Part shown: positions 1 to 38,058 of the stretch, in pieces
How positions within the stretch are numbered: the stretch's first letter is position 1
How the letters are laid out: the number at the start of each line of letters is the position of its first letter
IMG/VR virus record: IMGVR_UViG_3300012667_000266
Coordinates: 1-63,030 of that record
Length of the DNA: 63,030 nt
Origin: a virus
Taxonomy: Duplodnaviria; Caudoviricetes
Reading direction: 5' to 3' (one strand)
Notes under the pieces: generated by a model
What the model was told of the DNA's origin: nothing
The model's database searches: none
What the model saw: only the letters and a program-made list of their open reading frames with translations
Program-made: the position numbers and the translations under genes

Positions 1-217
1 CAGTGCCAACAGGGAAACCGTTTGTAGTGCCGTCAGCACCAGTGGCAGTAGCCACGGCCAGATAGCCATCCGCGTTCACGTACACGGGCGAACCGTTGTA
101 AATGTTCGAGGCTGTGCCTGCTGGGTCGATTACATATAAGCGGGTGCTACCAGCGTATGGTAGGCCACCCAACTCGTTTACGGGTTTCAAGCCGTAGGGA
201 GAAGCTGTAGATGCCAT
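1..217 (-). CDS. Partial virion head protein (capsid decoration/cement-like), truncated by the window edge
   Basis: ATG at 217 with SD TAGGAG; reads MASTASPYGLKPVNELGGLPYAGSTR... open to position 1; lies downstream of the scaffold gene. Confidence 0.7.
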   Translation of the reverse strand, partial: MASTASPYGLKPVNELGGLPYAGSTRLYVIDPAGTASNIYNGSPVYVNADGYLAVATATGADGTTNGFPVGT

Positions 218-232
218 TTAAGGACTCCTAGT

Positions 233-694
233 TTACTTAGAACCTGAACCAAAACCTCCGCCTCTGCTGGTCGTTGACTTGCGGTCGCTGAACAGCGGCA
301 TACGGGGGTCGTTGTTTCGCATGAAGTGGTTGTCCACTGAATCCATCTGGTTCTGCGCTTGCTTGTTGTAATAATCGTCACGGGCTTGCGCTTGTTCGAT
401 AGCCATCTTGCAAAGCATGAGGCCGCCGATTTCCACGTTGCCGGTCTTTTCATTACCAAACAATTGCAGTTCTGGATGGTCTTCTGCTTTCACCGGCTCC
501 CAACCTTCGCGCATCTTGCGAGACACGTTAGTAGGGTCGGCCTGTCCAAGTACATGCGTCGCTACCCAGCGAAACAGGTACCCGGGTTCCGGAGTCGGAT
601 CGGGCAGAGAAGTTGGCGGTACGTATACCGCACGAGCAGATTTTTCGCGTGACATAGTGTCACGGGGATCGCGGGAAGTGTTTTCTTTAGCCAT
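233..694 (-). CDS. Phage head-module hypothetical protein
   Basis: 153-aa ORF with SD GGAGG, between scaffold and head protein genes. Confidence 0.75.
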   Translation of the reverse strand: MAKENTSRDPRDTMSREKSARAVYVPPTSLPDPTPEPGYLFRWVATHVLGQADPTNVSRKMREGWEPVKAEDHPELQLFGNEKTGNVEIGGLMLCKMAIEQAQARDDYYNKQAQNQMDSVDNHFMRNNDPRMPLFSDRKSTTSRGGGFGSGSK

Positions 695-1634
695 TCTGAG
701 CCTCCAATTTAGCTACTTGTGCAGCGTATTGCTGCGGGGTTAATCCAAGTTTCTTTGCCAACGCAACTTGCGTGGTAGTCAACTTGACCTTTCCAGCACC
801 CGTAGAACGAGATGCGGACGCAACAACAGTGGAGGGCCGTGGTTTGGCCTCAGAGCTTCTCTGCTTGTCTTCTGTCTCACCGAATAACTCGGGAAACTTG
901 GACTTCATGCGAGCGTTAATCTGCTCGAAATAGTCATCATTGCGGGGGTCAACGCCACCGTTCACTAGCTTCTGGTGCAGTCCTAGTGCGTAACTGGTGT
1001 ATTCCTCGAACCCGGGGGAACCGAACCACTGGTTTCTAGCTTGCCAGCGCAAGGACTTTTCGTCCGGCTCAACCGCTCGGGTTTGCGGTTGTGCAGTTTG
1101 TACCTCATATTCACGCTCTTGTAAAGGGGTAGCACGAAAATATTTCGCCTGCTCCACTTTCATCTTGGCTTCGGTGAGGGACTCTTGCGCAGCAATGATA
1201 GCGTCTGTGTCAAACGCCTCTTGCGCCTCTTTATATTTACGGCGAGCCATCTCAAGCTCCGTCTCCGCTTCCTTGCGGGCAGAGTGGATGACCGCTTCCT
1301 GACCAGAGTTATAGCTCTTCTTGAGGCTTTTATTTTCCTCGATGAGCTGCTGTGCAAGACGCTCTAGCTCTTGCTTCTCGCGTAATACGGCCTCTTTCAC
1401 ACGGCGCTCGTCGTGGCGTGCGTGTGTCAAGTCCTTGATTCGCTTCTGCACATTGGAGGAGTAAGACTCAATTTCGTCGTCCGTAGGGTCATCGACCTCA
1501 CGGTTCAGGGGCTGACGGCCACGGTCCTTCTCAGGCGTGTCGTCTACGATCTCAATCTCAACATCCGTTTCTCGGTTGTCGGTCGAGTTGTCCTCGATCT
1601 CGTCGGGGAACTTAAAGTCGTCTTTAGGGTCCAT
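687..1634 (-). CDS. Capsid scaffolding protein
   Basis: Acidic N-terminus, long coiled coil, C-terminal LTTTQVALAKKLGLTPQQYA helix; located after the portal gene. Confidence 0.7.
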   Translation of the reverse strand: MDPKDDFKFPDEIEDNSTDNRETDVEIEIVDDTPEKDRGRQPLNREVDDPTDDEIESYSSNVQKRIKDLTHARHDERRVKEAVLREKQELERLAQQLIEENKSLKKSYNSGQEAVIHSARKEAETELEMARRKYKEAQEAFDTDAIIAAQESLTEAKMKVEQAKYFRATPLQEREYEVQTAQPQTRAVEPDEKSLRWQARNQWFGSPGFEEYTSYALGLHQKLVNGGVDPRNDDYFEQINARMKSKFPELFGETEDKQRSSEAKPRPSTVVASASRSTGAGKVKLTTTQVALAKKLGLTPQQYAAQVAKLEAQNG

Positions 1635-1643
1635 ACTTACTCC

Positions 1644-2078
1644 TTATGCGCGGGTTAAGCCGCGAGGGTCTTCCACAACAGCATCCACCTGATCGTCGTT
1701 CAACAGGCGGAACTCTTTTCCGAAAATTTTGAAACGCGTACCGGAATATGTACGCACGAGTACGAAGTCACCTTCTTTGCACCATGCTCCTGTGGGGAAC
1801 TTGGCGGTGTCTTTGTACGCGTCTGGTCCTACGCGAAGTACGAACAACACGGTTGTGGCGTGCTCTTCTTGGCGCATAGTCGCAGTATCACGAACCAAAT
1901 CGAGGGACGTACCGGCAATCTTTTGATCGACTTCTGGTACGACGCAGAGAATCTTCCAGCCCGTGGGGGTCGGCAGAGCGCCTGCTTTGGTTTCGGTTGA
2001 AGCATCTTCTTCTGGTTTTTCCAGAGGTTGGATGTGGTCAGGGAGGGCGATGCCCGGAGGCAAGAGGATTTCACTCAT
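1644..2078 (-). CDS. GroES/Cpn10-like co-chaperonin
   Basis: PTGWKILC...VLRVGPDAY...CKEGDFVLVRTYSGTRFKIFGKEFRLLNDDQVDAVV matches the Cpn10 pattern; start taken at MSEILL (2078). Confidence 0.85.
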   Translation of the reverse strand: MSEILLPPGIALPDHIQPLEKPEEDASTETKAGALPTPTGWKILCVVPEVDQKIAGTSLDLVRDTATMRQEEHATTVLFVLRVGPDAYKDTAKFPTGAWCKEGDFVLVRTYSGTRFKIFGKEFRLLNDDQVDAVVEDPRGLTRA

Positions 2079-2265
2079 GTGCTTTTTCAACTTTCTCTGC
2101 AAGGTCAAGTATGTAACGCTCTGCGGTCGCTAGACCCTGAATAACACCACAGAGCTTTTGGTAATCCTCGAAATTTCGACATGCTCCACCGGCGAGATCG
2201 TCGGCGTAGTTGTTCATGTCAGTGCGTATTTTTTCGCGCAATACGCGTGCGAAGTCTTGGATCAT
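2071..2265 (-). CDS. Small hypothetical protein downstream of portal
   Basis: 64-aa ORF overlapping both neighbours (translational coupling). Confidence 0.7.
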   Translation of the reverse strand: MIQDFARVLREKIRTDMNNYADDLAGGACRNFEDYQKLCGVIQGLATAERYILDLAEKVEKAHE

Positions 2266-4778
2266 TTGGTTTTGTTTCCTTGTTTAAAGGTTTGGATGTG
2301 TTGAAGCGCTTGCTGCTTCTCTTGCAAAGCCTGTTGGGCCTTGTTCTTTGCAATCTCGGAACCCAGCTTGATTCCGGCTTGCTGTTCTTGCGAAGCTCGT
2401 TGGAGCTCGTTGTTTTTGATCTGTGCGCCGACCTTCATGGCGTCGAGCTGCATCTGGCCGGACAGTTTCTGCTGCTCCAGCTCGATCTTGTCTGAGTCGC
2501 GTGCAATTTCGGCCACGACTTTCTGAGCCTTGATCTGGACTTCCTGCTCCTTGACAGCCATTTCGCGTTGCTGCAACTGGAACACTGGGTCTTGGGCTTG
2601 CTGCTGCTGTTGGGCTGCTGCGGCCTGTGCTTGGTTCTGCATCATTACTTGGTTGGCGGCCTGAGCCATCATGCTGGACAAGGCAATCTCCACCTGTGGT
2701 GGCAGCTTTTCGTCTTCTGGAGGCAAGGCCATACCGAGTTGCTGCTCGATCTGCTGACGCATCTTGAAGCCAACGTGCTCTGCGATGTGTGCCGTGATGC
2801 CACCAATGATCTGCTGCGCCTTGGGGTTCTGGCCAATGAACTGCTGGATCGAGGGGTCCTGCAACATCATCATGTGCACTTGGATATGTGACTGGTGATC
2901 TTGGTGCAAGAAAGCCTTCATGGGCTTGGTCTTCAGAGCATTCTGGTTCTCTTGGACAGGGTCGGTCGGCTTCATATCGTCCTCGATTGGGACGAGCTTC
3001 TCAGCGTTCTTGATACCCAAAACCTCCAACATGTTGCGGTGCAACTGTGGCAAGTCGTAGATGTCCGGGGCCATCTGCGCCATCTGGATAACCGCTTGGT
3101 ACTGCACCACGCGCTGCGACATGGTCGCGGCATTGGGGTCCGACACGGGGATCACGTCCACCAAGTCATAGTCACCCTTCTTGGCTTTACGGCTGCCGTA
3201 CTCTGGGTCGTACTGATAGTCTGGGTCTGTGTAGTCGCGGATGATGTTCTTCAGGAGTTTGAGTTCCTGCTTCAATGCGAAGTGCACACGGGCCTGAACA
3301 GCCGTCATCACCTTGAGCTGGCGCTCCAACAAGGCCAGAGTCGTGCCCACTGGGGCCTGACCTGACATGTCGCTGATCTTCATGTCCGCTGTTGCGGCGA
3401 AGCGACGGCCTTCTTCCACGATGTTTTGCAACAACGTGTACAGAACTTGGCTTGGCTCTTTGTAAGGTAAAGGTAAGATTGAATCGCGAATGTTGCCCGA
3501 AGCAACGTCTACATCGCGCCACTCGCCGGGGGCGATCGGTGTGTCATCACCCTTAATGCGAAGGCCACGGGACTTGAGTCCACCGGGAAGGTTTGACAAC
3601 GTGCCTGCATCCACCAGTTGGCGCATGAGAGATGTTGCAGACTTGGCGAAGCCACCGACGAGGTGGAACAGGCCAAAGCCGTAGGCTCCGAAGCCGGGGA
3701 TGTATTGGTAGTGGACGAAATGCTGGCGCTTGAGCTTGAGGTCATCGTCTTCCTTCCAGTTGCGGCGGATTGACAAGACGTCGTTCGTGCCTTTGATTAG
3801 GGTAACTACGTAGGGTAGAGCGATACCTGTGGTCACCAGCTCGCCGTCTTCGTTCTCTTCCGTATCTTCGTACCCTTCGAGGTCCAAGTCAACGTGGCAC
3901 TCCAGCAACGTGTAGCGGTCGTCGTTCAAATCGCTGAAGCCGGTCTCTTTGTCCTTGGCTTTCTGGATGTCCGTCTGCTCGCGAGGTGCGTCAGGCAACT
4001 CGATGTCGAGGTAGAACCCTGACTGCTGGAGCTTGATGATCTCGTTCTTGGTCTTGCGCATGACGTGCGTCACGCGGTGGCAAGTATCCAAATCAGTCGC
4101 GCCGTAGGGCAGGATGATGTCTTCGGCCGGTACGAACATCGACACTTGGCGGCCAAGGTTCGGGTCGTAGTACACCTTCTTGAACGCTGAACCTGTAGCT
4201 GGCAGCGACCACAACATGCGCTCGTGCTCACCGCGGAACTCTTTCATCTCCTCGGTCAACTCAAAGTTCATGTCGTCCTGCACGCGACGAGCAGCTTCTT
4301 GCAACTCAGGCGTGTCTTTGCCGATGAGCTTGGTGCGCACGGGGCCTTGGGCGGGGAACGTCTCGGTGATCGTCTCAGCTTGAAACCGTACAACGGCCTC
4401 GGTAATCATGGGGTGGAATACGCCACAAGCACCCTGCCAAGGCTCGGTACGCTCTTCGATCTGGAGACCCAACAGCTTCAAGCCGTCAACGTAGGCTTTC
4501 TCCCACTCTTTGCGAGACTGCTTGTCGTTGTCGATGTCTGAGTCCAAGTCACCGGCCATCTGGGCCATAGCACCATCGTCCATGTACTCGGCCAAGTTGT
4601 CACCGAAGCCTTCTTCGTCCTCGTCCTTGCCGGGCATAAGACTGATCTCCATGCCGTCCAAGCCAATCGTGACTTCTTCGGGATCAACGATCTCGATTTC
4701 CAGCGGGGATTCTTGTTCGGCTAAGGCGTCGATGCCCACGGGCTGTTGGTACAGAGCCTTGTCAATGTTGGTTGCCAT
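2262..4778 (-). CDS. Portal protein
   Basis: 838 aa directly after TerL; HPMITEAVVRFQAE, GSAFKKVYYD, Q-rich C-terminal coiled coil typical of P22-like portals. Confidence 0.9.
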   Translation of the reverse strand: MATNIDKALYQQPVGIDALAEQESPLEIEIVDPEEVTIGLDGMEISLMPGKDEDEEGFGDNLAEYMDDGAMAQMAGDLDSDIDNDKQSRKEWEKAYVDGLKLLGLQIEERTEPWQGACGVFHPMITEAVVRFQAETITETFPAQGPVRTKLIGKDTPELQEAARRVQDDMNFELTEEMKEFRGEHERMLWSLPATGSAFKKVYYDPNLGRQVSMFVPAEDIILPYGATDLDTCHRVTHVMRKTKNEIIKLQQSGFYLDIELPDAPREQTDIQKAKDKETGFSDLNDDRYTLLECHVDLDLEGYEDTEENEDGELVTTGIALPYVVTLIKGTNDVLSIRRNWKEDDDLKLKRQHFVHYQYIPGFGAYGFGLFHLVGGFAKSATSLMRQLVDAGTLSNLPGGLKSRGLRIKGDDTPIAPGEWRDVDVASGNIRDSILPLPYKEPSQVLYTLLQNIVEEGRRFAATADMKISDMSGQAPVGTTLALLERQLKVMTAVQARVHFALKQELKLLKNIIRDYTDPDYQYDPEYGSRKAKKGDYDLVDVIPVSDPNAATMSQRVVQYQAVIQMAQMAPDIYDLPQLHRNMLEVLGIKNAEKLVPIEDDMKPTDPVQENQNALKTKPMKAFLHQDHQSHIQVHMMMLQDPSIQQFIGQNPKAQQIIGGITAHIAEHVGFKMRQQIEQQLGMALPPEDEKLPPQVEIALSSMMAQAANQVMMQNQAQAAAAQQQQQAQDPVFQLQQREMAVKEQEVQIKAQKVVAEIARDSDKIELEQQKLSGQMQLDAMKVGAQIKNNELQRASQEQQAGIKLGSEIAKNKAQQALQEKQQALQHIQTFKQGNKTK

Positions 4779-4786
4779 GTGTGTTC

Positions 4787-6328
4787 CTAATAGTATGCAG
4801 CGTTACGGCGGCGGAAAAACGACGGGTCGTCGCGCTCATCCGAGTCCAGTGAAATGAAGCCGCCTTGCCTGAAGCGAAGCAGCGCTTGTGATGTCGTATC
4901 CACGTAGTCATCGTTCTCTCCGTTGGGGAAAGACGCGACTTCCTCAATGACTTCCCGTGCCCAGCGGGTGTCTGGACACCAGACTTTACCCGATGCGAAC
5001 AAGTCCGCCACCGCGTTCAATCGTACCGTTTTATCGTTCCCGCGTGAAGGGGAGAACTCTTGGACAGGGATTCCCATGTTTCGGAGCTCTTGAATAAGAG
5101 GGGCACCTGCGGCTTTCTTTTCAACAATGAACCCGTCTGGCTCCCACTCCTTGTAGTGTTTGAGGGCGACGGTCTTGAGTTCTGGGAACTCCATTCGGTC
5201 CTTGAAAGCGTCAAGCAAGATGACTTGTGGGGCATTGGCCTCCTCCTCGTTGTAGAACACACCCCATGTCGTGCACGCCGAATAGTCGGCGGTGGTCTTG
5301 GCTTCAAACGCCGTATCCCACGACTGGATGATGTACTCACAATTTGGCGGAGTGTCCGACGGCCAGATGCGCCAAGACTTACGACTGATGATCGCCGCGT
5401 TGTTGGAGGTAGGCTGCTGCATGTACTGGGCGTTCCAGTACTGCGGGTCCATGTTGGCCTTCTTGTTCTTCAACTGGTCCAGCGGCCACTGCTCGGGCCA
5501 CAAGGATTTCTCGTTTTCTGTGTCTTCGTTCAGGATGGCAGGCAGCTCCACCACCTCCCACTGATCCGAGTCTGGGTTCTTGGTCTGGTAGTCCAGTAAG
5601 CGGCCAGTAAGGTCGAGCTTACCCCAGCGGGTCATGATGACGATGATCGCACCGCCCGGCATCAAGCGCTGGAGAGGGCCAGTTTGGAACCAAGACCACG
5701 CCGTGTCAAACGCTAGACGTGAGTTACTTTTGACGTCCTGCTCCGAGTGAGGATCGTCGATAACGAACAGGTCAGCACCACGGCCAGCAAGAGCACCGCC
5801 AACACCAGCAGCATAGTACTGACCGCCAACGCTTGTGCTCCACTTACCAGCGGCCTTGGCGTCATCAGCCACTTGGGTCTTGGGGAAGACTTCTGCATAC
5901 TCATCGCTCCCGATCAAGTTACGGATACGGCGGCCGAAGTCTTCGGACAAACCAGCGGTGTGGGTGCCCATGATGATCTTCTTGTCGGGGTAGCGCCCCA
6001 GAAAGAACGCCGGAAACAGGTAGGAACTGAACTCAGACTTACCCATACGGGGTGCAATGTTGATGATTACACGCTTTTTCTTGCCGTCGAGCACGTCCGA
6101 GAACACCTTGGCCAGCTTTCGGTGGTGCGGACCGACCTTAAAACCGGGGTAGACGCTTTGCGCAAAGGCAATCATGTCCGTACGCCCAGCGTTTAATAGG
6201 AGGCGTTGCTCCCGAACGTCCAGCATCTCCAACAATTCCAGCTTTTCAGCGGTCGTCATAGTAGGCAGCGCCAGTTGAATGGCGTCGGCCTCTTGTTTGC
6301 TGAGGGTTTTAAGCTGACTCAGGTCCAT
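4787..6328 (-). CDS. terL: Terminase large subunit
   Basis: Walker A NIAPRMGKS, Walker B FVIDDP, nuclease motifs QSWDTA, IVEKKAAG and NDDYVD. Confidence 0.96.
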   Translation of the reverse strand: MDLSQLKTLSKQEADAIQLALPTMTTAEKLELLEMLDVREQRLLLNAGRTDMIAFAQSVYPGFKVGPHHRKLAKVFSDVLDGKKKRVIINIAPRMGKSEFSSYLFPAFFLGRYPDKKIIMGTHTAGLSEDFGRRIRNLIGSDEYAEVFPKTQVADDAKAAGKWSTSVGGQYYAAGVGGALAGRGADLFVIDDPHSEQDVKSNSRLAFDTAWSWFQTGPLQRLMPGGAIIVIMTRWGKLDLTGRLLDYQTKNPDSDQWEVVELPAILNEDTENEKSLWPEQWPLDQLKNKKANMDPQYWNAQYMQQPTSNNAAIISRKSWRIWPSDTPPNCEYIIQSWDTAFEAKTTADYSACTTWGVFYNEEEANAPQVILLDAFKDRMEFPELKTVALKHYKEWEPDGFIVEKKAAGAPLIQELRNMGIPVQEFSPSRGNDKTVRLNAVADLFASGKVWCPDTRWAREVIEEVASFPNGENDDYVDTTSQALLRFRQGGFISLDSDERDDPSFFRRRNAAYY

Positions 6329-6923
6329 CAGCGGGCTTTTCTGCGGGGTTGGTGATATTTGGCGTCACATCTGTGATCTCCTGCACGTCTGTCACGCCCA
6401 TGAACTTGGACAACTTGTCCTTAATCTTCTGGTTCAGCTCGTCGTCGCTGATTTCGTCCTTCTTGATCTCGATCTTCTCGGTGAACAGGCCCACTTCCGT
6501 GACCTTGCCCAGCAAAGCCAGCGCTTTCAAGCGGATGTTGGCGCTTGGGTTCTCAACTTCTTCGAGGATCTTGGCTACGGCGTAGCCGCGCAGCTTCTGC
6601 GCTTGGGTCACGAACTCCCAGTCATAGGCAGACAGCATGCCAACGAGGTGCTGCACCGCTTGGGGCGTAGTGACTCCTGCCAAGGAGGCTTGTGTAATCT
6701 CTGTTGACTTCGCCGCCACGATGTTGGCGAACGACTCCCGCGCTGCCTGAGCCTGCGCTTGATCTACTGCGGTACTTTCGTCCACAGCTCCGAGACTCTT
6801 GAGCCACTCTGCCGTACTGGCCTTGGCGTCAACCGTCTCAGTGATGCCTGCTTTTTCAAGCGGCACGAACCCCGTGGCTTTGTCTTCCACTTCCGGCTCG
6901 AAGTCTATTAAATGGTCCAGCAT
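6309..6923 (-). CDS. Putative terminase small subunit
   Basis: Immediately upstream of terL; RLKALALLGK helix; start at MLDHLIDF (6923) with SD AAGGA. Confidence 0.65.
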   Translation of the reverse strand: MLDHLIDFEPEVEDKATGFVPLEKAGITETVDAKASTAEWLKSLGAVDESTAVDQAQAQAARESFANIVAAKSTEITQASLAGVTTPQAVQHLVGMLSAYDWEFVTQAQKLRGYAVAKILEEVENPSANIRLKALALLGKVTEVGLFTEKIEIKKDEISDDELNQKIKDKLSKFMGVTDVQEITDVTPNITNPAEKPADGPESA

Positions 6924-6942
6924 TTGTTCCTTACGGTGCGGG

Positions 6943-6991
6943 TTGCGTTCCCGATGCGCGGAGTGTACACTAACTTCCGGTAAGTGTGCAA
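6943..6991. promoter_or_regulatory. Bidirectional sigma70-like promoter with overlapping -10 boxes
   Basis: Palindrome AGTGTACACT (6962-6971) gives TACACT on both strands. + strand: TTGCGT(6943-48)-N17-TACACT. - strand: TTGCAC(6991-86)-N18-TACACT toward terS. Confidence 0.6.
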
Positions 6992-7090
6992 CTTTGGGTC
7001 GGGAGATCCCAGCCGCTGTTGTCCATTTGCTTCTCCTCTGGGGGCTTTTTCCGGGCCTTCTTTTAATCCCGCCTCGTGCGGGATTTTTTT
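6978..7090 (+). ncRNA. Candidate small RNA with anti-Shine-Dalgarno/anti-start-codon segment
   Basis: Bounded by a predicted promoter and an intrinsic terminator, with no credible + ORF; contains CCATTTGCTTCTCCT (7023-7037), complementary to early-gene translation starts. The 5' end is estimated. Confidence 0.5.
7065..7090 (+). terminator. Rho-independent terminator
   Basis: AATCCCGC-CTCGT-GCGGGATT hairpin followed by a T run. Confidence 0.75.
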
Positions 7091-7132
7091 CGCCTCGAGG
7101 TTTTTCCAAATTTTTTATAAAATTTTTGGGCC

Positions 7133-7150
7133 TTGTCAAAGTTTAGACAA
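7133..7150. promoter_or_regulatory. Operator-like palindrome TGTC-N8-GACA, copy 1
   Basis: TTGTCAAAGTTTAGACAA; related sites at 13096 and 25757. Confidence 0.55.
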
Positions 7151-7283
7151 GGGGGTGGGTTCGGATTTTTGAAATTACTGAGTGTCGATGCGAAACAGTG
7201 TTTATGGGCGGCATGGACCATGACGGCTTAAAGGGGTTGTGGGGGAGTGGTGGGGTCAAAGGTTCTCGGTTTTCGGGTCTGAA

Positions 7284-7312
7284 TTACGACGGAATACCTC
7301 GCTTCATACAAT
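7284..7312 (+). promoter_or_regulatory. Putative early sigma70 promoter
   Basis: TTACGA-N17-TACAAT upstream of the first + strand gene, followed by a leader hairpin GCGATGCA...TGTATCGC. Confidence 0.5.
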
Positions 7313-7362
7313 AGAGTTAGCGATGCAGAGGTTGTATCGCATAACCAAACGGAGTAAACACC

Positions 7363-7740
7363 ATGACAACAGTAAACAAGACCAAAGCATTTAAAGCACT
7401 CGACGCCTTCGCATCAAGCCGCGTTAAGTTAATCGAATCCATGCAGGCCGCAGGCTACACAACAGTCGAGGCGTGCAGGCCCATCGTGATTGAGTGGGCG
7501 TGTGTCAAGACTGGCGCGGCGTTCAACGTAAGCAAGGGCGGCAAGGTAATGCTCGACTCAAGCCATGCACGCTATGAGGCGGCCAAGACCACAGTGCGCG
7601 ACGTCATGCTCATGTTGCAGGGCACGACACGCCACGCCACGCAAGGTAGCAACAAGACCGACCCAGTCGAGGCCGTGATTAAAGCCATGCTCAAGCTGAC
7701 ACCCGCGCAACGCGCCGCAGTGATTAAAGCAGTGGCCTGA
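7363..7740 (+). CDS. First early gene, hypothetical protein
   Basis: 125 aa, SD GGAG, followed by a hairpin and T tract. Confidence 0.8.
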   Translation: MTTVNKTKAFKALDAFASSRVKLIESMQAAGYTTVEACRPIVIEWACVKTGAAFNVSKGGKVMLDSSHARYEAAKTTVRDVMLMLQGTTRHATQGSNKTDPVEAVIKAMLKLTPAQRAAVIKAVA

Positions 7741-7744
7741 TTTC

Positions 7745-7765
7745 GGGTCAGCCTGACCCTTTTTT
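7745..7765 (+). terminator. Palindrome GGGTCAG-C-CTGACCC plus T tract (terminator and/or operator, repeat copy 1)
   Basis: 7-bp arms with a 1-nt centre followed by TTTTTT; the same motif recurs at 8138, 9555 and 12026. Confidence 0.55.
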
Positions 7766-7851
7766 ATCTGAGAGTTTTTTCCCCGAACCCTGCGAGCGTG
7801 GCTCTTGCGGTGTTTCGTTTCTTGTCAAGCCACATCCGAACTGGAATCATC

Positions 7852-7995
7852 ATGACTAAAACACAATCCATCATCGTTGCGCTCATCGGCTCCGCATACC
7901 TTGCGCTGGCCTTCAACATCGAGGGCGCATCGTCAACCATCATCGGCTTCTTCGCAGGCTTGCACATCTGCGCGGCCTTCACCATCAAGGAGTAA
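7852..7995 (+). CDS. Small membrane protein
   Basis: MTKTQSIIVALIG..., two hydrophobic segments. Confidence 0.55.
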   Translation: MTKTQSIIVALIGSAYLALAFNIEGASSTIIGFFAGLHICAAFTIKE

Positions 7996-7999
7996 CGCC

Positions 8000-8176
8000 A
8001 TGACCAACCGCAACAACATCTACCGCCTCAAGCTCCGCGCCTTGCGCGAGGAGTTCGCCGAGCGTGCCAAGCACGACACACGCAAGGCCAAAGCGCTGGC
8101 CAATGCTGAGCGCATAGAGACAGAGGCCGAACTAAAACGGGTCAGCCTGACCCGAACTTATCCAAAATGCGTGTAG
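8000..8176 (+). CDS. Small basic hypothetical protein
   Basis: SD AAGGAG, MTNRNNIYRLKL... Confidence 0.6.
   Translation: MTNRNNIYRLKLRALREEFAERAKHDTRKAKALANAERIETEAELKRVSLTRTYPKCV
8138..8154. repeat. Palindromic repeat CGGGTCAG-N-CTGACCCG, copy 2
   Basis: CGGGTCAGCCTGACCCG, a perfect 8-bp inverted repeat. Confidence 0.8.
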
Positions 8177-8200
8177 TCTCTTTAATCTTGCCCAATTTTT

Positions 8201-8499
8201 TGGTGTCCTGTGACTACTCGTTTCTGTCAGCAAATCGGACAGCCCGCAAGCCTTGTGTGGCGGGCGTTTCAAAAAATTCTGTCACTACTATCTATATCTT
8301 TATTTATATATATGTATAGTATGGCCCCTCTGTATGGGCATCCTCTTTGGCTGGCGGTCTGGCGTTAGCTCTTTCTAAAAAACACAGATACCATAGCACT
8401 AAAACCGAGAGCAACACAACAAACCCAGTAACCATGCGGGTTGCGAGAGGAAAAAAAATGTCCGCTTTGCTGGCAGAATCGAGTACACTTGGGACACCA
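8201..8499. repeat. Long imperfect inverted repeat flanking an AT-rich core (origin-like)
   Basis: 8215-8241 matches the reverse complement of 8459-8485 at 24/27 positions; TGGTGTCC/GGACACCA extends the arms; TA-rich core at about 8288-8322. Confidence 0.65.
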
Positions 8500-8521
8500 C
8501 TTTTTCAAGGTCTTTTTAATC

Positions 8522-9265
8522 ATGGATTATCACTTTACACACCTCGTCTCACTGAAACCTAAGCAGCTTCAGAACTATCTGGTCGAGCACATCCCAAGTC
8601 AGGTGCATCGCAACCGCTTGCGTGCAGAGATTAAAGAATATAAAGAACAGCTACGGGCCGAGCGCATATCGAAGCACCAGCACAACAAACTTTGGGGCGC
8701 GTTGTTGCGAGACCTCAAGTACGAGCGTAGCAATGCAACAGTTGGCCGAGCGTACAAAGCCAAGCAACCCACACCTGAGCGAGACACGGCCTTCGATGCG
8801 TACATCAAGGTGCTTGACCGCTTGCTCACACTACTGCAAGACAACTACCGACAGACGGGGCAAACGCCTAGCGAACTAGCCCGTGAGAAGAACGTGCCCA
8901 ACAACGGCTCGCATTGGACTGACTGGGTGCCTGAGACCGTGAAGATTAAAACGCAAACGCTATTCGATGGCATCCCTTATCAAGCAAAGGCAAAGCGCAA
9001 GACCCCTTTCGCTCGCAAGCAACGCCCCGATGTGAAGAAGACCAACAAGGACGGCGAGAAAGTATCCGCACTCGATGCCATGCGTCAGCAGGTAGAGGAG
9101 GAGTTGGGATTCAAGCGGCGTGAGAACCTCATACTAGAGGACGACAAGATTAAAAACAAAATTCACGACCTCATGCGTGTGCAAGCATGGCTTGAGGCGG
9201 CGACAACATCAACCGCACTGCCGAACACATGGCATGGCGTGTTACGTCTTTTGAAAGGGGAATGA
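8522..9265 (+). CDS. Hypothetical protein
   Basis: Long ORF, basic and helical; start taken at MDYHF. Confidence 0.7.
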   Translation: MDYHFTHLVSLKPKQLQNYLVEHIPSQVHRNRLRAEIKEYKEQLRAERISKHQHNKLWGALLRDLKYERSNATVGRAYKAKQPTPERDTAFDAYIKVLDRLLTLLQDNYRQTGQTPSELAREKNVPNNGSHWTDWVPETVKIKTQTLFDGIPYQAKAKRKTPFARKQRPDVKKTNKDGEKVSALDAMRQQVEEELGFKRRENLILEDDKIKNKIHDLMRVQAWLEAATTSTALPNTWHGVLRLLKGE

Positions 9266-9266
9266 T

Positions 9267-9551
9267 ATGTTGAAGATTGACGCAATGAAAGAAGCGGCCT
9301 TCGCTGACGACGCACGCGACAAGTTGCGTGAAGTGTTGTGGCACGACAGCAACACAGGCAAGTTCTATTACAAGGACACAGGCACAGAGGCAGGATGCCT
9401 CGACCCTGCCAAGGGCATACGCATCAAGGTAGGAAAACGCCATTACTGGGCACATCGCTTGGCTTGGTTGTTCGCATGGGGTCGATGGCCTAGCCGCTTA
9501 CGGCACATGGATGGGGACAAGACAAACAATCGCTTGTCCAACTTGTATTGA
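9267..9551 (+). CDS. HNH endonuclease-like protein (short)
   Basis: YWAHRLAW...RHMDGDKTNNRLSNL is a typical phage HNH motif. Confidence 0.75.
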   Translation: MLKIDAMKEAAFADDARDKLREVLWHDSNTGKFYYKDTGTEAGCLDPAKGIRIKVGKRHYWAHRLAWLFAWGRWPSRLRHMDGDKTNNRLSNLY

Positions 9552-9554
9552 AAA

Positions 9555-9571
9555 CGGGTCGGACTGACCCG
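9555..9571. repeat. Palindromic repeat, copy 3
   Basis: CGGGTCGGACTGACCCG, intergenic. Confidence 0.75.
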
Positions 9572-9618
9572 AAAAGGTTAGCGGTGTGCCTTCTCACACC
9601 GCATCAAAGGAGAGAGTA

Positions 9619-10022: not shown

Positions 10023-10039
10023 CAACAAGGAGAAAGCAA

Positions 10040-11470
10040 ATGACATACGACAGCAAACTCGATGCGCTCAACGTAGCGACCAACATCCATGTAGCTTTGC
10101 GCTTATTGCGTAGCGGTAACAGTGCCGAGGTATGCACACCCGTTGTGTACCCTCGTGCAGACGGCGGCTTCGACGTAGCTAACCGATTCAGGCACGTAAC
10201 TACCCTCGCATCCAACCCGTGGCATCGTGCACTTCAATCACGCTGGCAACTACATCCCGCCATCGACAAGTTGATTCAGTACTACCGACCACACGACTGG
10301 CAACTGTTAGTCATGGAGTACCCACATCAAGCTGAGACAGACCGTTCACGCATCGCATACACCCAGTCAGTGCGTAAGGGCGAGGCGGATATACAGACCG
10401 TTACTAGCTTAGGCAAGTACATACGCAGACACTTCCCTCAAGTCAGTGACCACGTCATCCGTGACACGGTCGCGGCGTATAGCGTTGTCGGTTGCAAGAT
10501 TGTGCGTACCACTGCCGAGATGATTTACCACATACATCGTGGCCCTCAGTCATGTATGCAGAAAGCTGACTGGGATGTCAACACACATCCGTATCGTGCG
10601 TACTGTCCGACCCTTGGTTGGGGCTTGGCCGTGCGTGAGGCTGGCGGTGACACTGTCGGTCGTGCCTTGGTCAATGAGCGTAGCAAGACGTATGTGCGTA
10701 CCTACCTCAAGCGTGATTCGTTTTCACACAGCGACCACGAGTTAGAGGCATGGTTGCAACAGCAGGGCTACGGCAAGGCATCCGACTGGGAAGACTTGCA
10801 TCTCTTGTACATCGAGCATCGTGGTTCTTTCCTTGCACCATACATCGACGGCGACATCAAGGACGTAGACGTAGCGTATGAGGGTGACGTGCAAGTGCTC
10901 AACGTGGTAGAGGATGGCGCGTATCGTTGCGACCAGACCGATGGCACAGCGCAAGACAATGACGGCACTACGTGCGAGGACTGCGGCGAGCGTTGCTCTG
11001 AGGGTGACGGCTACTGGGTAGGACGTAGCGAAGACCGATTCGTGTGTGACAACTGTTGCGACAACGACTACACCTATGCGTACTCACGCAACGGCTATCA
11101 GAAATACATCGACAGCAGCGACACGACATACGTCAACGGCGAGCACTACGACACGGAATATCTGTCAGACAACGGCATCGTCGAGCTTGACAACGGCGAC
11201 TACGAGCACAGTGACAACGCTGTGTACGTCGAGAGCCGCGATGCGTACTACCACTGCGATGACGAAGACATCTGCTACGACGACTACAACAACCAGTACG
11301 AGATGCGTAGTGACTGTGTCGAGTTAGCTGACGGCGGTATGTGCCACGAAGACAACGCATGGCAATGCGAGCACACCAAAGAATGGTATAGCGACAGCGA
11401 CGACTACGTCGAGGTAGACGGCAAACGCTATCACCCCGACCATGCACCCGAAACAACAGAAGGAGAATGA
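10040..11470 (+). CDS. Hypothetical protein with acidic Cys/Asp/Tyr-rich repeated C-terminal region
   Basis: 476 aa; SCM and PYID motifs; CEDC...CDNC zinc-ribbon-like segment followed by D/Y-rich repeats. Confidence 0.8.
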   Translation: MTYDSKLDALNVATNIHVALRLLRSGNSAEVCTPVVYPRADGGFDVANRFRHVTTLASNPWHRALQSRWQLHPAIDKLIQYYRPHDWQLLVMEYPHQAETDRSRIAYTQSVRKGEADIQTVTSLGKYIRRHFPQVSDHVIRDTVAAYSVVGCKIVRTTAEMIYHIHRGPQSCMQKADWDVNTHPYRAYCPTLGWGLAVREAGGDTVGRALVNERSKTYVRTYLKRDSFSHSDHELEAWLQQQGYGKASDWEDLHLLYIEHRGSFLAPYIDGDIKDVDVAYEGDVQVLNVVEDGAYRCDQTDGTAQDNDGTTCEDCGERCSEGDGYWVGRSEDRFVCDNCCDNDYTYAYSRNGYQKYIDSSDTTYVNGEHYDTEYLSDNGIVELDNGDYEHSDNAVYVESRDAYYHCDDEDICYDDYNNQYEMRSDCVELADGGMCHEDNAWQCEHTKEWYSDSDDYVEVDGKRYHPDHAPETTEGE

Positions 11471-12552
11471 ACATGAAAGCAACATCAATCTTGGCCAAGA
11501 CATTGGCACGCGGCTTATCGCTCAAGCGCCCACACAACGGCGTAGGTGTCGAGGCATTTACTGAATGGCTATGGGACAACGTGCCTGCTGAGTTACATCA
11601 GTACGTATGGCGTGACGCATCGGGCAACCTACACGTAGACAATCGCACACGACCCGAGCATCGCACGTTATTCGTAGCACACGTTGACACCGTGCATCGT
11701 GAGGATGGGGCTAACAAGATACGCAAGACCAAGGGTATGTGGTATGCCGACGGTGCGTGCTTAGGTGCGGATGACGGCGCAGGTGTAGCGATGCTCATGC
11801 ACATGATGCACAACAACGTAGCAGGGTATTACGTGTTCACGCAGGGCGAGGAGTGCGGCGGTATCGGCGCTAAGTTCTTGGCCAAGTATCAGCCTGAGTT
11901 GCTCGACCAGTTCGACCGTGCTATTGCGTTCGACCGCCGTGGTACAGACAGCGTCATCACGCATCAAGGGTATGGCCGCTGCTGCTCCGATGCGTTTGGC
12001 CAAGCGTTAGCCGATGCTTTGAATTCGGGTCAGTCTGACCTGATGTACTCGCCCGACAACACGGGGGTGTATACCGATACTGCCGAGTTCACCGACAACA
12101 TCCCTGAATGTACCAACCTGAGCATCGGGTATTACAGCGAGCATGGCGACCAAGAGCGTCTTGACATCTTTCACTATCAACATCTTTCTGTTGCTGTGTT
12201 GGCCGTGAACTGGGATGGTTTGCCAACCGAGCGCGACCCGAAGGTTCAAGAGTCGATGCTCAGTTATGGGAAATCCTACGGCGGCGTGTATGCGTGGCCA
12301 GAAGATGATGACATGGACTTCGAGAAGGAAGATGTGCTGTGGGCGTTGTATGACGCCAAGCTAGGCTATGTGGACGACCTGCTTGACCTAGTGGCTATGA
12401 GCGTGTACCCCGAAGACCCTGACCTTGCACTGCGACACCTCAACGCCAAGCGTTTGACCGAGAAGCTATGTGACGAGTTCAAAGAGATGGCCAAGTCGTT
12501 TGACGCACCGACTGTACTGGCTACTGTGTTCGATGCGTTGTATCAAGAGTAA
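11467..12552 (+). CDS. Zn-dependent exopeptidase (M20/M28-like)
   Basis: AHVDTVH, LGADDGAG, GEECGGIG, AFDRRG and a C-terminal His form the co-catalytic zinc ligand set. Confidence 0.85.
   Translation: MNMKATSILAKTLARGLSLKRPHNGVGVEAFTEWLWDNVPAELHQYVWRDASGNLHVDNRTRPEHRTLFVAHVDTVHREDGANKIRKTKGMWYADGACLGADDGAGVAMLMHMMHNNVAGYYVFTQGEECGGIGAKFLAKYQPELLDQFDRAIAFDRRGTDSVITHQGYGRCCSDAFGQALADALNSGQSDLMYSPDNTGVYTDTAEFTDNIPECTNLSIGYYSEHGDQERLDIFHYQHLSVAVLAVNWDGLPTERDPKVQESMLSYGKSYGGVYAWPEDDDMDFEKEDVLWALYDAKLGYVDDLLDLVAMSVYPEDPDLALRHLNAKRLTEKLCDEFKEMAKSFDAPTVLATVFDALYQE
12026..12042. repeat. Palindromic repeat, copy 4 (inside CDS)
   Basis: CGGGTCAGTCTGACCTG. Confidence 0.65.
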
Positions 12553-13113: not shown

Positions 13114-13144
13114 TTCGAGTATCATTTAAACAAAGGAGAAGGAA

Positions 13145-13735
13145 ATGACAGACATGAAATCTGCGCTTAGTAATGTCCTTAATGAATGGGACAAGCATGA
13201 AGAAACGATTCGTACACAACCACAGGAGAAACAAACAATGAAAACTAAAATCATTGCACACCGATTCAAACCAACCAACAACGCATCACGCGAAACATTC
13301 AACGCAGTCAGGGACTTTCCCAATCAGAAGGCAGCGTTCTATATTGAGATGCTTGCGAAGAAAGGTTTTAAGCAAACAACCGTACAAGCACTGCTCTATC
13401 AGATGGTCAGGTTCGGACAGATGGTCAAGGCCAAAGACGGATGCTTAGTTACTGTGGGTAGCGCATACACACCGATCAAGATGAAACGCAAAGGTAAAGA
13501 GATAAAGCCCGATGCCAAGGTCGTGCAAGCACTCATCGCAGAAGCAGACAAGCCAAGCAAGTCACTGACTGTGAACGTAGGCATTGCCGCGCTCAAGTCC
13601 GATGCTGCCCCCGCACCACGCAAGAACTCACTCATTCTCAACCGCGACTGGACACCATACAAGGCCATCGAGAACCTCAATGTGTTCCAAGCACGTGCGT
13701 TGTACGATGAACTCAAGAAAATGTTTGGAGAATAA
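13145..13735 (+). CDS. Hypothetical, possible winged-helix DNA-binding protein
   Basis: Basic; GFKQTTVQALLYQMVRFGQMVK resembles a wHTH recognition helix plus wing. Confidence 0.55.
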   Translation: MTDMKSALSNVLNEWDKHEETIRTQPQEKQTMKTKIIAHRFKPTNNASRETFNAVRDFPNQKAAFYIEMLAKKGFKQTTVQALLYQMVRFGQMVKAKDGCLVTVGSAYTPIKMKRKGKEIKPDAKVVQALIAEADKPSKSLTVNVGIAALKSDAAPAPRKNSLILNRDWTPYKAIENLNVFQARALYDELKKMFGE

Positions 13736-17318: not shown

Positions 17319-17787
17319 GCGTAGCAAGTACAAGCCCAAGCCCATACGTGTGGACGTGATGGACTACGTGAAGTCAGGGCTGATGAAGTTCGACGACGTG
17401 AGCGTAGCTGTTGACCTGCGTATCAAGAACCACCAAGCGATGGAAGCGCTACGCTTAGGCCAAGCCACCAAGGATGACATTGACGTGCTCATCGGCACGT
17501 TCAACATGGTCGAAGGCTTTGCGCGGCTGCGTCCCGAACTTGGAGCGGACTGGCAAGCAGAGATCAAGGCTGGCCAAGATGCGCTGTACCACATGGGCCG
17601 TCGGGGTTCAACCACTGGCAAGTTTGTCTGCAAGGCTGACGAGTTGGTGGCCATGAACTTAGTCATGGAGATACACGACGCTCAACTTGACCAAGCAACA
17701 GTCAAAGACTTAGAGCTTGCGATGGACATCGTGAAAGAAGACTTCCGCAACAAGCGGATGCGACAAGTAAAGGAGAAGCAAGCATGA
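17311..17787 (+). CDS. Hypothetical protein
   Basis: SD AGGAG, MRKRSKYKPKPI... Confidence 0.75.
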   Translation: MRKRSKYKPKPIRVDVMDYVKSGLMKFDDVSVAVDLRIKNHQAMEALRLGQATKDDIDVLIGTFNMVEGFARLRPELGADWQAEIKAGQDALYHMGRRGSTTGKFVCKADELVAMNLVMEIHDAQLDQATVKDLELAMDIVKEDFRNKRMRQVKEKQA

Positions 17788-22354: not shown

Positions 22355-22570
22355 ATGGCCAGATACACAACGTGCAAAGACATGGACCGTGTAGTTGGTG
22401 CGCTGGTGAAAGACGGATGGATGCTCACAAAGAATGGGCATGGCCGTCTCACCCACCCAAGCGGCAAGTACATCACGTTCAGCGTGACGCCAAGCGACAA
22501 GTACGCGTTCAAGCAACTAGAGCGAGACGTGAAGAGATTGTTACAACAACTGGAGAAGCAAGATGGATAA
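22355..22570 (+). CDS. HicA-like (dsRBD-fold) protein
   Basis: ALVKDGWMLTKNGHGRLTHPSGKYITFSVTPSD pattern. Confidence 0.55.
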   Translation: MARYTTCKDMDRVVGALVKDGWMLTKNGHGRLTHPSGKYITFSVTPSDKYAFKQLERDVKRLLQQLEKQDG

Positions 22571-22745
22571 TTTTTATGAAGAGGTTGAAGTCGTATTCAC
22601 CGCCAAGGTGGTGCGCTTGAAAGACAGCAACAGCAACTGGGTCGGCGACCTGTACGGGCAACTGGACTACCTGCTGCGCAGTGACAAGCACATGCTAGTC
22701 GGCTGGTCACAGATAGACATAAACGAAAAAGGAGAAAGCAAATGA
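22563..22745 (+). CDS. Hypothetical protein
   Basis: 60 aa, SD GGAG. Confidence 0.55.
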   Translation: MDNFYEEVEVVFTAKVVRLKDSNSNWVGDLYGQLDYLLRSDKHMLVGWSQIDINEKGESK

Positions 22746-24144: not shown

Positions 24145-24161
24145 AAATAACGGAGAAGTAA

Positions 24162-25774: not shown

Positions 25775-25792
25775 AATAACAGGAGAAGCACA

Positions 25793-26197
25793 ATGTCTGA
25801 CGAAGTAGTACCCCTCGATAAACTTGCAAAGGTTTATCGCAAAATCAAAACACAGATCGACACCTTGACCCAAGAGTACGACACGCAAGTGGAAGCGCTC
25901 AAGGCACAGCAAGACCAGATCAAGTTCGCAATGAAGGACACGATGAAGACGCTTGGCGTCAGCACGGTCCGCACAGAATTCGGGACGGTTTCCTTGGTGA
26001 CCAAGACCCGCTACTCGACGCAAGACTGGGACTCGTTCAAGAAGTTTATTCTTGAGCACGAAGTCGTAGACCTGCTGGAGAAGCGTATCGCGCAAACCAA
26101 CATGGCAAACTTTCTCGAAGAGAACCCCGGTGTTCTACCACCGGGACTTAACGCGATGACTGAGTACGACATCTCAGTTCGCAAACCCACCAACTAA
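25793..26197 (+). CDS. Phage replication-module coiled-coil protein
   Basis: MSDEVVPLDKL...DWDSFKKFI...LLEKRI; SD AGGAG. Confidence 0.75.
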   Translation: MSDEVVPLDKLAKVYRKIKTQIDTLTQEYDTQVEALKAQQDQIKFAMKDTMKTLGVSTVRTEFGTVSLVTKTRYSTQDWDSFKKFILEHEVVDLLEKRIAQTNMANFLEENPGVLPPGLNAMTEYDISVRKPTN

Positions 26198-30849: not shown

Positions 30850-31015
30850 GAACGGGCAGGGGTTCTTTGTCCCCTGCCTAGACACCGAAGCGGTCAAGAA
30901 GAAGGGACTGAGCGAGGCGCTCAGATCCCGTATCTTCAATGCCCAAGCTCAGACCGGAATCTGGCGAGGGCGTATCGGCGTTATTTTTTTCCGAGGGACG
31001 ATTCGGCGGACTTGA
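30800..31015 (+). CDS. Small hypothetical protein, last gene of the + arm
   Basis: WPWSKVKNGQGFFVPCLD...GVIFFR. Confidence 0.6.
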   Translation: MSLTRTVSVRWPWSKVKNGQGFFVPCLDTEAVKKKGLSEALRSRIFNAQAQTGIWRGRIGVIFFRGTIRRT

Positions 31016-38003: not shown

Positions 38004-38027
38004 GGTGTCTAAATTTTGTCGGCTTAG

Positions 38028-38058
38028 AAAAAACCCCGTCAAGGCCGTCCTGACGGGG
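38028..38058 (-). terminator. Intrinsic terminator upstream of the large polyvalent gene
   Basis: - strand CCCCGTCAGGACGGCCTTGACGGGG followed by TTTTTT. Confidence 0.65.

Follow-up and report, generated by a model that had tools for sequence, protein, structure and literature searches.

A conserved candidate small RNA of freshwater phages with an anti-Shine-Dalgarno seed matched to the ribosome-binding sites of replication genes

The DNA analyzed here (the window) is a 63-kb phage record of 63,030 nucleotides (nt), IMGVR_UViG_3300012667_000266, which is nearly complete (CheckV 98%) and is divided into two arms of opposite polarity. The minus arm (1-6923 and 30981-63030) carries terS, terL, portal and structural genes, and the plus arm (7363-30849) carries DNA polymerase, helicase, primase-helicase and many small open reading frames (ORFs). 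In the 440-nt divergent gap between the start of terS (6923) and the first plus-arm ORF (7363) lies a predicted small RNA (sRNA), encoded on the strand opposite terS, that very likely represents a genuine, conserved family of phage sRNAs not described before. This family belongs to a large clade of uncultured freshwater phages. The RNA carries a CU-rich anti-Shine-Dalgarno (anti-SD) stretch, and a trans-acting role in which it lowers the translation of replication and middle genes, by occluding their ribosome-binding sites (RBSs) and AUG codons, is favored with moderate confidence. An earlier note on this DNA had proposed the core of this reading, a plus-strand sRNA with an anti-SD and anti-AUG segment aimed at replication genes, and the present sequence analysis supports that proposal in part.

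The predicted RNA gene and its parts are as follows.

6978 to 7091, plus strand: predicted small RNA of about 110 to 114 nt, its 5' end placed from the -10 hexamer and its 3' end from the U-run
6943 to 6948, plus strand: -35 hexamer TTGCGT of the small-RNA promoter, separated from the -10 by a 17-nt spacer
6966 to 6971, plus strand: -10 hexamer TACACT of the same promoter, which falls within the palindrome AGTGTACACT
6979 to 7031, plus strand: stem-loop 1, in which the 5' end GGUAAGUG pairs with the 3' arm CAUUUGCU; the apex is variable
7024 to 7039, plus strand: predicted anti-RBS seed, with UCUCCUCU (7032-7039) single-stranded and CAUUUGCU (7024-7031) in the weak 3' arm of stem-loop 1
7040 to 7060, plus strand: stem-loop 2, with 8 pairs in the window, 4 of them G·U
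7065 to 7090, plus strand: stem-loop 3, the intrinsic terminator, with an 8-bp stem, a 5-nt loop and a U-run at 7084-7090; it reads in one direction only

The earlier note had described a promoter TTGCGT-N17-TACACT, a terminator at 7065-7090 and the sequence CCATTTGCTTCTCCT at 7023-7037, and each of these sequences and coordinates was confirmed. The promoter (6943-6971) was the sole match to TTG-N20-TACAYT in the window. The motif GTGTACAY occurred 12 times in the window against 3.9 expected, with the remaining copies all within genes. The hairpin at 7065-7085 and its T-run formed the best terminator-like site of a scan that returned 14 sites in 6300-8500 against 2.5 expected. The RNA folded with -44.0 kcal/mol (z -3.17, minimum free energy [MFE] frequency 0.23), compared with -28.4 kcal/mol (z -1.09) for its complement. 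Three of the eight pairs of the CAUUUGCU arm of hairpin 1 were G·U in this fold, and UCUCCUCU and CAUUUGCU jointly complement AGAGGAGAAGCAAAUG. The prior judgment that the locus holds no credible ORF was upheld, as no ORF over the RNA locus was conserved on either strand: plus-strand ORFs traverse a zone with 21- to 35-nt insertions and deletions in relatives, and an 18-codon minus-strand ORF (7026..6970) was not conserved. The locus thus has the attributes generic to trans-encoded sRNAs, namely its own promoter, its own Rho-independent terminator, no conserved ORF, a covarying fold and an accessible seed. Judged from these sequence features, the three-hairpin RNA with a sigma-70-like promoter at 6978-7091 (+) is a conserved noncoding RNA gene.

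Conservation was examined in terS-related loci from IMG/VR, comprising the best 80 of 130 relatives for a first query and the best 80 of 313 for a second. The first set provided 78 loci, which with the window yielded 56 distinct upstream sequences, L079 (match from residue 31) and L004 (67 nt upstream) being left out. In the second set, 58 loci were examined and yielded 31 new distinct sequences; 22 loci on contigs already in the set and L126 (too short) were left out. The same plan of promoter, three hairpins, CU-rich stretch and U-run, on the strand opposite terS, was found in 87/87 distinct relatives (56/56 and 31/31). Retention of the anti-SD segment and terminator upstream of terS, which the earlier note had suggested looking for, was therefore complete among these sequences. 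The order of elements on this strand was TTGNNN-17-TA(C/T)A(C/T/G)T, about 7 nt to the inferred start, hairpin 1, the unpaired CU-rich stretch, hairpin 2, a GC-rich hairpin and 5 to 8 T. In the first set, a TTGNNN -35 hexamer was placed 17 nt from the -10 in 56/56 relatives (six rows given as CTTGCA-18 are equivalent to TTGCAG-17), with spacer sequence varying by clade, and the small-RNA -10 was TACACT in 45, TATACT in 7, TATATT in 3 and TATAGT in 1. Clades differed in their spacers, hairpin apices and terminator stems; the stems remained paired and the plan unchanged. A T-run followed the terminator hairpin on the plus strand in every relative, and clade-specific inserts in hairpin 1 themselves formed hairpins.

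The seed was among the elements retained. TTGCTT(T)CTCC was present in 56/56 first-set relatives, CUCC was unpaired in 56/56 first-set MFE folds, and CUC(C/U) was fully unpaired in 25/31 second-set folds. The extension varied by clade (UUUGCUU, UUGCUUU, UUUACUU and UUUGUUU), and the 5' arm of hairpin 1 changed in concert. In a metagenome contig of a close variant (DNA run X1), 21 nt (7+6+6+2) were missing from the apex of hairpin 1 (6992-7017) while the seed and hairpin 2 were intact, so the apex appears dispensable, as L001 likewise shows.

The fold itself is conserved and is specific to one strand. The sense fold was more stable than the terS-strand fold in 87/87 relatives, with means of -45.9 versus -34.0 kcal/mol in the first set and -37.4 versus -30.1 kcal/mol in the second. 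In an unsupervised MAFFT alignment of 50 sequences, the stems predicted by RNAalifold were 95.7% paired, compared with 86.2% after shuffling (0/500 as high) and 43-60% when the stems were slid by 1 to 3 columns. Compensatory change, with both sides altered, was found in 9/14 pairs; in stem-loop 2 it occurred at all 6 consensus pairs, and across the 50 sequences the closing stem of stem-loop 1, rich in G·U pairs, was 99.2% paired. In all, 227/696 stem cells were G·U or U·G. Since these would be C·A mismatches on the opposite strand, the structure exists on the plus strand only. A covariance model (R1) built from the 50-sequence alignment was used to search 16 genomes (667 kb) and gave exactly one match per genome in 16/16 (E 3e-26 to 7e-5), ten of these genomes being outside the training set. 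Beyond these, R1 returned two marginal matches only (E 0.29 and 0.66). On the window the model matched 6978-7091 (+) with 58.4 bits (E 4e-14).

Potential targets were sought at gene starts called with a simple caller in which the choice of start depends on complementarity to the 3' end of 16S rRNA and takes no account of the seed; called genes shorter than 50 codons, and those encoded against the prevailing strand of their neighborhood, were kept out of the RBS sets. The ten plus-arm sites that had been listed as near matches to the seed complement were all present, before the called starts 10040, 12563, 13145, 17784, 17991, 20132, 22563, 22742, 24162 and 25793. The leading predicted targets, with their seed duplex energies, are as follows.

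24152 to 24165, plus strand: RBS and AUG of the helicase gene, GGAGAAGTAAATGG, the best predicted target (-25.0 kcal/mol; start 24162)
22552 to 22566, plus strand: RBS and AUG of a 60-aa ORF, GGAGAAGCAAGATGG (-23.7 kcal/mol; start 22563)
10028 to 10042, plus strand: RBS and AUG of the gene for a 476-aa protein, AGGAGAAAGCAAATG (-20.6 kcal/mol; start 10040)
13134 to 13147, plus strand: RBS and AUG of a 196-aa ORF, AGGAGAAGGAAATG (-20.3 kcal/mol; start 13145)
22730 to 22744, plus strand: RBS and AUG of a 99-aa ORF, AGGAGAAAGCAAATG (-19.6 kcal/mol; start 22742)
25781 to 25795, plus strand: RBS and AUG of the gene for a 134-aa protein with a DUF7307 / Pam3 gp33-like Pfam match, AGGAGAAGCACAATG (-19.0 kcal/mol; start 25793)
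17771 to 17786, plus strand: RBS and AUG of a 64-aa ORF, AGGAGAAGCAAGCATG (-18.7 kcal/mol; start 17784)

The helicase matched phrog_62 (3e-108). The 476-aa protein had no Pfam or PHROG match, and its ESM Atlas neighbors were unnamed viral clusters; orthologs of its gene were the top target in G001, G002 and G004.

The two arms differ in their RBSs. In the window, GGAGAA followed by G or A was found at 13/43 plus-arm starts and 0/34 minus-arm starts, and it nearly never occurred at late starts of other genomes. The sequence AGGAGAAGCAAATG with at most 2 mismatches was found 5 times against 0.46 expected (0/100 shuffles reached 5), and the 10-mer GGAGAAGCAA with at most 1 mismatch 18 times against 4.76 expected (0/100 shuffles). 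Two RBS dialects can be seen: replication genes have AAGGAGAA(G/A) and purine-rich spacers, and structural genes have (T)AAGGAG(C/T). Neither extension is used in the first ~2.5 kb of the plus arm (7363-9600), and the target class is therefore better called middle or replication genes than immediate-early genes. The earlier suggestion that the targets are the early class of the plus arm holds for the replication and middle genes, which carry the motif, and not for all plus-arm genes.

The contribution of the seed extension was assessed with about 200 composition-matched control seeds in which the CUCCU core was fixed and the extension shuffled, a strong target being defined as -17 kcal/mol or lower. 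At the early starts of the window, the real seed had a mean of -11.85 kcal/mol, compared with -8.98 ± 0.73 kcal/mol in controls (1/200 as good), and 8 strong targets, compared with 0.66 in controls (1/200). The seed extension was specific for the early sets in 5/5 genomes (the window, G001, G002, G003 and G004). For the late sets, the seed was not specific in 4/5 genomes; in the window late set, the mean was equaled by 2/199 controls and the strong-target count by 20/199.

The seed and its predicted sites also vary together across genomes, as the earlier note had anticipated for each genome's early RBS consensus. In the genomes with the seed UUGCUUUCUCC (UUUCUCC), namely G001, G002 and G004, the site variant GGAGAAAG was found at 5, 6 and 2 early starts and GGAGAAGC at 1, 0 and 0. 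In those with UUGCUUCUCC (UUCUCC), namely the window, G003, G010, G014, G015 and G007, GGAGAAGC was found at 3, 3, 2, 3, 5 and 5 early starts and GGAGAAAG at 4, 1, 1, 1, 0 and 0. Thus, the window is the only one of the six UUCUCC genomes in which GGAGAAGC does not outnumber GGAGAAAG. The association between seed and RBS variant had a Fisher P value of 3.9e-5, uncorrected for shared ancestry. Over the whole plus strand, the commonest 6-mer neighborhood past GGAG was the exact seed complement, at rank 1, in both G001 and G002. The genome G008 has an odd seed, UUUGUUUCUCUCUCUU (also written UUUCUCUCUCUU), and carries GAGAGA at 5 early starts, including GAGAGAGAAAC ahead of a 524-aa gene; in a swap test of 15 seeds, its own seed ranked 1.

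Changes at individual orthologs were compared in two pairings. The close relatives G006 and G007 have seeds that differ by one base (GUUUCUCC versus GCUUCUCC), and among their orthologous early genes, four switch from GGAGAAA to GGAGAAG in step, four are the same and none is clearly opposite; the sites of the 476-aa gene alternate between GGAGAAAC and GGAGAAGC in these two genomes. When the window is compared with G001, in-step changes are found at the helicase and at the 134-aa gene and not at the 476-aa gene. The helicase ortholog site in G001 and G002 is GGAGAAAGC, in step with their seed, and that of the 134-aa gene is GGAGAAAGCACA.

The promoter of the small RNA is interlocked with a promoter that faces terS, by way of the following elements.

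6962 to 6967, minus strand: -10 hexamer of the predicted divergent terS/late promoter, which reads TACACT on its own strand and overlaps the plus-strand -10 by 2 bp
6986 to 6991, minus strand: -35 hexamer of the terS-sense promoter (TTGCAC with a spacer of 18, or TGCACA with a spacer of 17), inside the 5' stem of the RNA
6309 to 6923, minus strand: terS (small terminase subunit), the first late-arm gene, divergent from the RNA and named by its position upstream of and overlapping terL

Both -10 hexamers lie within the palindrome, each with a -35-like hexamer at 17 to 18 nt, and this arrangement was kept in 56/56 relatives, in which the terS-sense -35 was TTGCGC in 36, TGCACA in 15, TTGCCA in 4 and TTGCGT in 1. 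The inferred start sites, about 6978 (+) and about 6955 (-), are 23 bp apart. The geometry fits that of a bidirectional promoter of the overlapping -10 class, in the window and in 56/56 relatives. As outlined in a 2026 study of Escherichia coli, common start-site spacings of bidirectional promoters are 18, 10 and 23 bp, binding of one polymerase excludes the other, and strong activation one way lowers transcription the other way (PMC12825309). The phage element resembles these bacterial promoters in its opposite-strand hexamers within a palindrome and in its 23-bp spacing; it differs from those outlined there in that its arms would yield a regulatory RNA on one side and a whole late operon on the other, and in being predicted from sequence. 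Because the -10 hexamers overlap by 2 bp, polymerase would occupy one direction at a time, and with a shared palindrome and mutual exclusion, the RNA and the late operon would share one control point, from which they may rise together, as the earlier note proposed in having the RNA switched on with the late operon, or may alternate.

The remainder of the gap holds further promoter-like and operator-like sequences. An operator-like inverted repeat, TTGTCAAAGTTTAGACAA, lies just past the RNA terminator at 7133-7150 (+) and takes the form TGTCTAACGTTAGACA in many relatives (L007, L017, L066 and others); there, a strong promoter-like block facing the early genes, TAGACA-N18-TATAAA, shares part of its -35 with the repeat. 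The repeat and the block are probably an early promoter with a repressor site. An A/T-rich near-palindrome, CCAAATTTTTTATAAAATTTTTGG, is found at 7106-7129 and a G-rich box, GGGGGTGGG, at 7150-7159; the latter recurs 3' of the early promoter block in many relatives, and the palindrome and the A/T block come in one order in the window/L001 clade and in another elsewhere. On the minus strand, 7139-7110 is a promoter-like site, TTGACA-18-AAAAAT (10 of 12), with no clear counterpart seen in relatives; were it active, its transcript would run antisense to the small RNA over the full length of the latter.

The sequences themselves show that the element is conserved, on which strand and in what fold, how its promoter and terminator are laid out, that it complements the sites and that seed and targets covary; the production of the RNA, repression by pairing and the time of action are inferred. 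In the proposed mechanism, host sigma-70 polymerase would transcribe the RNA from one side of the bidirectional promoter, the other side driving terS and the late arm. The ~110-nt transcript would end at its own intrinsic terminator and fold into three hairpins, exposing the CU-rich anti-SD UCUCCUCU between hairpins 1 and 2, with CAUUUGCU held in the G·U-rich, easily opened arm of hairpin 1. Pairing would nucleate between UCUCCUCU and the GGAG of an mRNA and then extend via the spacer to the AUG, reaching genes whose site carries the class-specific extension GGAGAA(G/A)CAA. The 30S site would thereby be occluded, and decay perhaps triggered, with less translation of the replication and middle class, and late genes with (T)AAGGAG(C/T) sites would be spared.

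Several observations weigh against this class-specific, trans-acting role. When the whole RNA was cofolded with 60-nt mRNA pieces, unfolding costs included, the arms were not separated (-6.82 early versus -6.23 late, P = 0.30), and the best single value belonged to a minus-arm start, 47437. Plain seed duplex energies of early and late starts differed only modestly in the window (P = 0.056) and did not differ in G001 (P = 0.29), and elsewhere part of the duplex-energy difference reflects stronger SD cores, the arms differing in SD strength in G002 and G004. The gene caller was crude. The covariation amounts to about three lineage events with no phylogenetic correction, and the window itself has 4 one-bulge GGAGAAAG sites compared with 3 perfect GGAGAAGC sites. 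In the swap test, the own seed ranked 8 in G006, 7 in G007, 15 in G011 and 10 in G012; this test is uninformative for G009, G011, G012 and G013, whose contigs span just the first few kilobases of the early arm, which are motif-free in the window too. Transcription from a sigma-70-type promoter could begin within the first minute after infection, a poor fit to a simple late shut-off. Finally, no RNA run on record contained the locus, and in two RNA-labeled and two DNA runs, three short pieces of relatives were found in RNA run X24, within terS and the first early gene and none over 6978-7091, which is uninformative on expression either way. Because cofolding and mean duplex energies discriminated poorly, the case for unequal pairing relies on the seed-level control: the early preference proposed in the earlier note stood at the level of the seed, in 5/5 genomes, and was not reproduced by whole-length cofolding.

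As an observation apart, the minus-strand late-arm ORF start at 47437 (GTTGCAAATGGAA) pairs well with the seed extension and not with the SD core, and its start call is uncertain.

Four other explanations for the element were weighed. The RNA might be real and have host mRNAs as its main targets, or titrate an RNA-binding protein such as Hfq, with the fit to phage early sites being secondary. An exposed CUCCU can pair with any strong SD, and the RNA has a weak Rfam likeness to bacterial CU-seed sRNAs, which are described as acting on many host mRNAs (PMC5688073). However, the extension past the SD core specifically matches the phage early sites and changes with them, a pattern that selection by host targets alone would not yield, and we regard this explanation as unlikely.

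About as improbable is an attenuator, in which the plus-strand unit serves early-arm transcription as a terminated 5' leader: RNA started at 6978 would normally stop at 7090 and reach 7363 onward only under antitermination, the short RNA being a by-product like the lambda PR' 6S RNA. The RNA unit is co-oriented with the early arm and directly upstream of it, and hairpin 2 with its UUUU is also terminator-like. Nevertheless, many relatives have, by eye, a separate strong promoter-like block and palindromic operator between the terminator and the first early gene, and the terminator is strong in all relatives (an 8- to 11-bp GC-rich stem and 7 to 8 U). An attenuator alone also leaves unexplained a single-stranded stretch that tracks the RBS variants of genes 3 to 20 kb away. 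The attenuator and trans-acting sRNA roles are not mutually exclusive and can coexist.

It is much less probable that the motif is the RBS of an 18-codon minus-strand mini-ORF (7026..6970), translated into a leader peptide ahead of terS, with nothing more than typical phage RBS likeness. Such a reading can draw on the perfect AGGAGAAGCAAATG on the minus strand, on an ATG 6 to 7 nt past GGAG in 24/56 relatives, which are all the UUCUCC-seed clades, and on the TTGACA-18-AAAAAT site at 7139-7110 (-), which could provide a transcript. Yet 32/56 relatives have no ATG, GTG or TTG 4 to 10 nt past GGAG and retain AAGGAGAAAGCAAGCG or similar all the same, so the mini-ORF fails as an explanation. The peptides, moreover, range from 8 to more than 26 residues without similarity between clades. 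The motif also lies upstream of the conserved terS-proximal promoter, and an upstream minus-strand promoter is not evident, by eye, in relatives. The stems are G·U-rich when read on the other strand, the minus-strand fold is no better than shuffles, and the hairpin with its 3' U-run reads as a terminator on the plus strand only. The mini-ORF, which the earlier note had named as a reading that would refute its own, was thus rejected for the family as a whole; incidental translation may occur in some clades.

Least credible of the four is a functional minus-strand RNA that mimics an RBS and acts as a decoy for a phage protein like T4 RegA, a translational repressor, or T4 RegB, an SD-cutting nuclease; the minus-strand element equals the early-RBS consensus and T4 proteins recognizing early RBSs exist, as summarized in PMC3014915, but the folds and G·U stems count against it as they do against the mini-ORF, and no conserved promoter was seen for such an RNA.

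Two further candidates were rejected. A cis-antisense RNA was set aside because the start sites 6978 (+) and ~6955 (-) diverge, so that the small RNA and the terS RNA do not overlap; only an active minus-strand promoter upstream of 7090 would alter this. A lambdoid late leader RNA (PR' 6S-type, with Q antitermination) was set aside because the unit is on the strand opposite terS and terL.

The trans-acting sRNA was compared with known systems. At Rfam gathering thresholds, no match was found in the whole window. The subthreshold matches (E-value mode) were all on the RNA strand and all to CU-seed sRNA families: RF02345 ar15 with 20.3 bits in the window against a cutoff of 40, and no match with E <= 1 in 18 relatives; RF02278, the Burkholderia (betaproteobacterial) toxic sRNA, with 18.1 bits in the window and 25 to 27 in 3/18 relatives, against a cutoff of 50; and RF02837 anti-hemB with 15 to 23 bits against a cutoff of 49.5. 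The RF02278, RF02837 and ar15/AbcR families are chromosomal and regulate host metabolism. The window RNA differs in that a phage carries it, in synteny with terS, and in its fit to genes of that phage. The model of ar15 (RF02345, alphaproteobacterial AbcR-type) can be aligned with the window RNA from one end to the other, which places its single-stranded UUCCCCUCUG on UUCUCCUCUG. According to PMC5688073, the RBS is covered by 55-80% of the interactions predicted in Burkholderia.

In function, the nearest analogue is T4 RegA/RegB, lytic-phage proteins that silence early genes, RegA as a translational repressor and RegB as an SD-cutting endoribonuclease (PMC3014915). As with these proteins, the proposed outcome is posttranscriptional shut-off of a temporal mRNA class at its initiation regions, with early and late told apart at or beside the SD. 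The effector proposed here is an RNA rather than a protein; it would recognize the class label through base pairing and is unrelated to RegA and RegB in sequence and structure. The closest phage RNA is the P1/P7 c4 RNA, which is described in PMC12197685 as a phage RNA that blocks translation by pairing around an RBS of a phage mRNA, the action predicted here. In contrast to c4, which acts on one operon, ant, in temperate immunity, the predicted regulon here has at least 8 dispersed genes, and no lysogeny genes have so far been seen in this phage. Trans-acting base pairing is shared with a lambda-encoded sRNA that acts on host replication (bioRxiv 10.1101/2024.10.31.621285) and with the PLE/ICP1 sRNA (bioRxiv 10.1101/2022.04.08.487710); as their abstracts present them, these target host genes or act between phage and satellite and are not described as anti-SD regulators of an own early class. 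The literature searched, including a 2025 review of phage sRNAs, mentions in its abstracts and excerpts no phage sRNA aimed at the phage's own temporal gene class via a class-specific RBS extension.

A further-reaching reading, offered tentatively and open to considerable doubt, is that the RBS serves as a temporal address label and that one sRNA, fired from the bidirectional promoter of the late operon, reads the label and switches the whole replication/middle class off. If so, polymerase orientation at one 10-bp palindrome would couple the start of packaging to a stop in the making of replication proteins. Label and reader would co-evolve in each lineage, giving private, incompatible shut-off codes among related phages that could bear on interference during coinfection. 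Such a system would be a compact, portable module of one ~110-nt gene and a short RBS tag, and a clear case of a regulator co-evolving with many dispersed targets. The element offers a new RNA family for the annotation of abundant freshwater phages, and the natural seed and target variants of G006 and G007 supply compensatory pairs.

With respect to the setting of the locus, the terS start at 6923 is backed by 80 relatives, mostly aligned from residue 1, and no PHROG family was matched by terS. The terL gene (4787-6328) matched phrog_38 (9e-101), and by terL, the nearest cultured phages, at ~45-53% identity, are DSL-LC04, 023Pt_psg01 and HTVC027P, in which gene order near terL differs from that of the window. 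The RNA element was not seen in two intergenic stretches of the nearest cultured phages, and R1 found none in three ~7-kb loci of theirs, these being loci and not whole records. The region 6300-7400 had no DNA match in public phage records, and the window contained no tRNA or tmRNA genes. On the minus strand, 30981-38042 is a 2353-aa ORF that carries LPD38 (large polyvalent protein associated domain 38; 1.8e-29) at its C terminus; this giant protein is likely ejected or part of the virion. On the plus strand, 11473-12552 encodes an early-arm 359-aa protein with weak M28/M20 peptidase matches (2.5e-07 and 1.7e-05), and this peptidase-like protein adjoins the 476-aa top target in relatives too (G004 49863, 59% identity).

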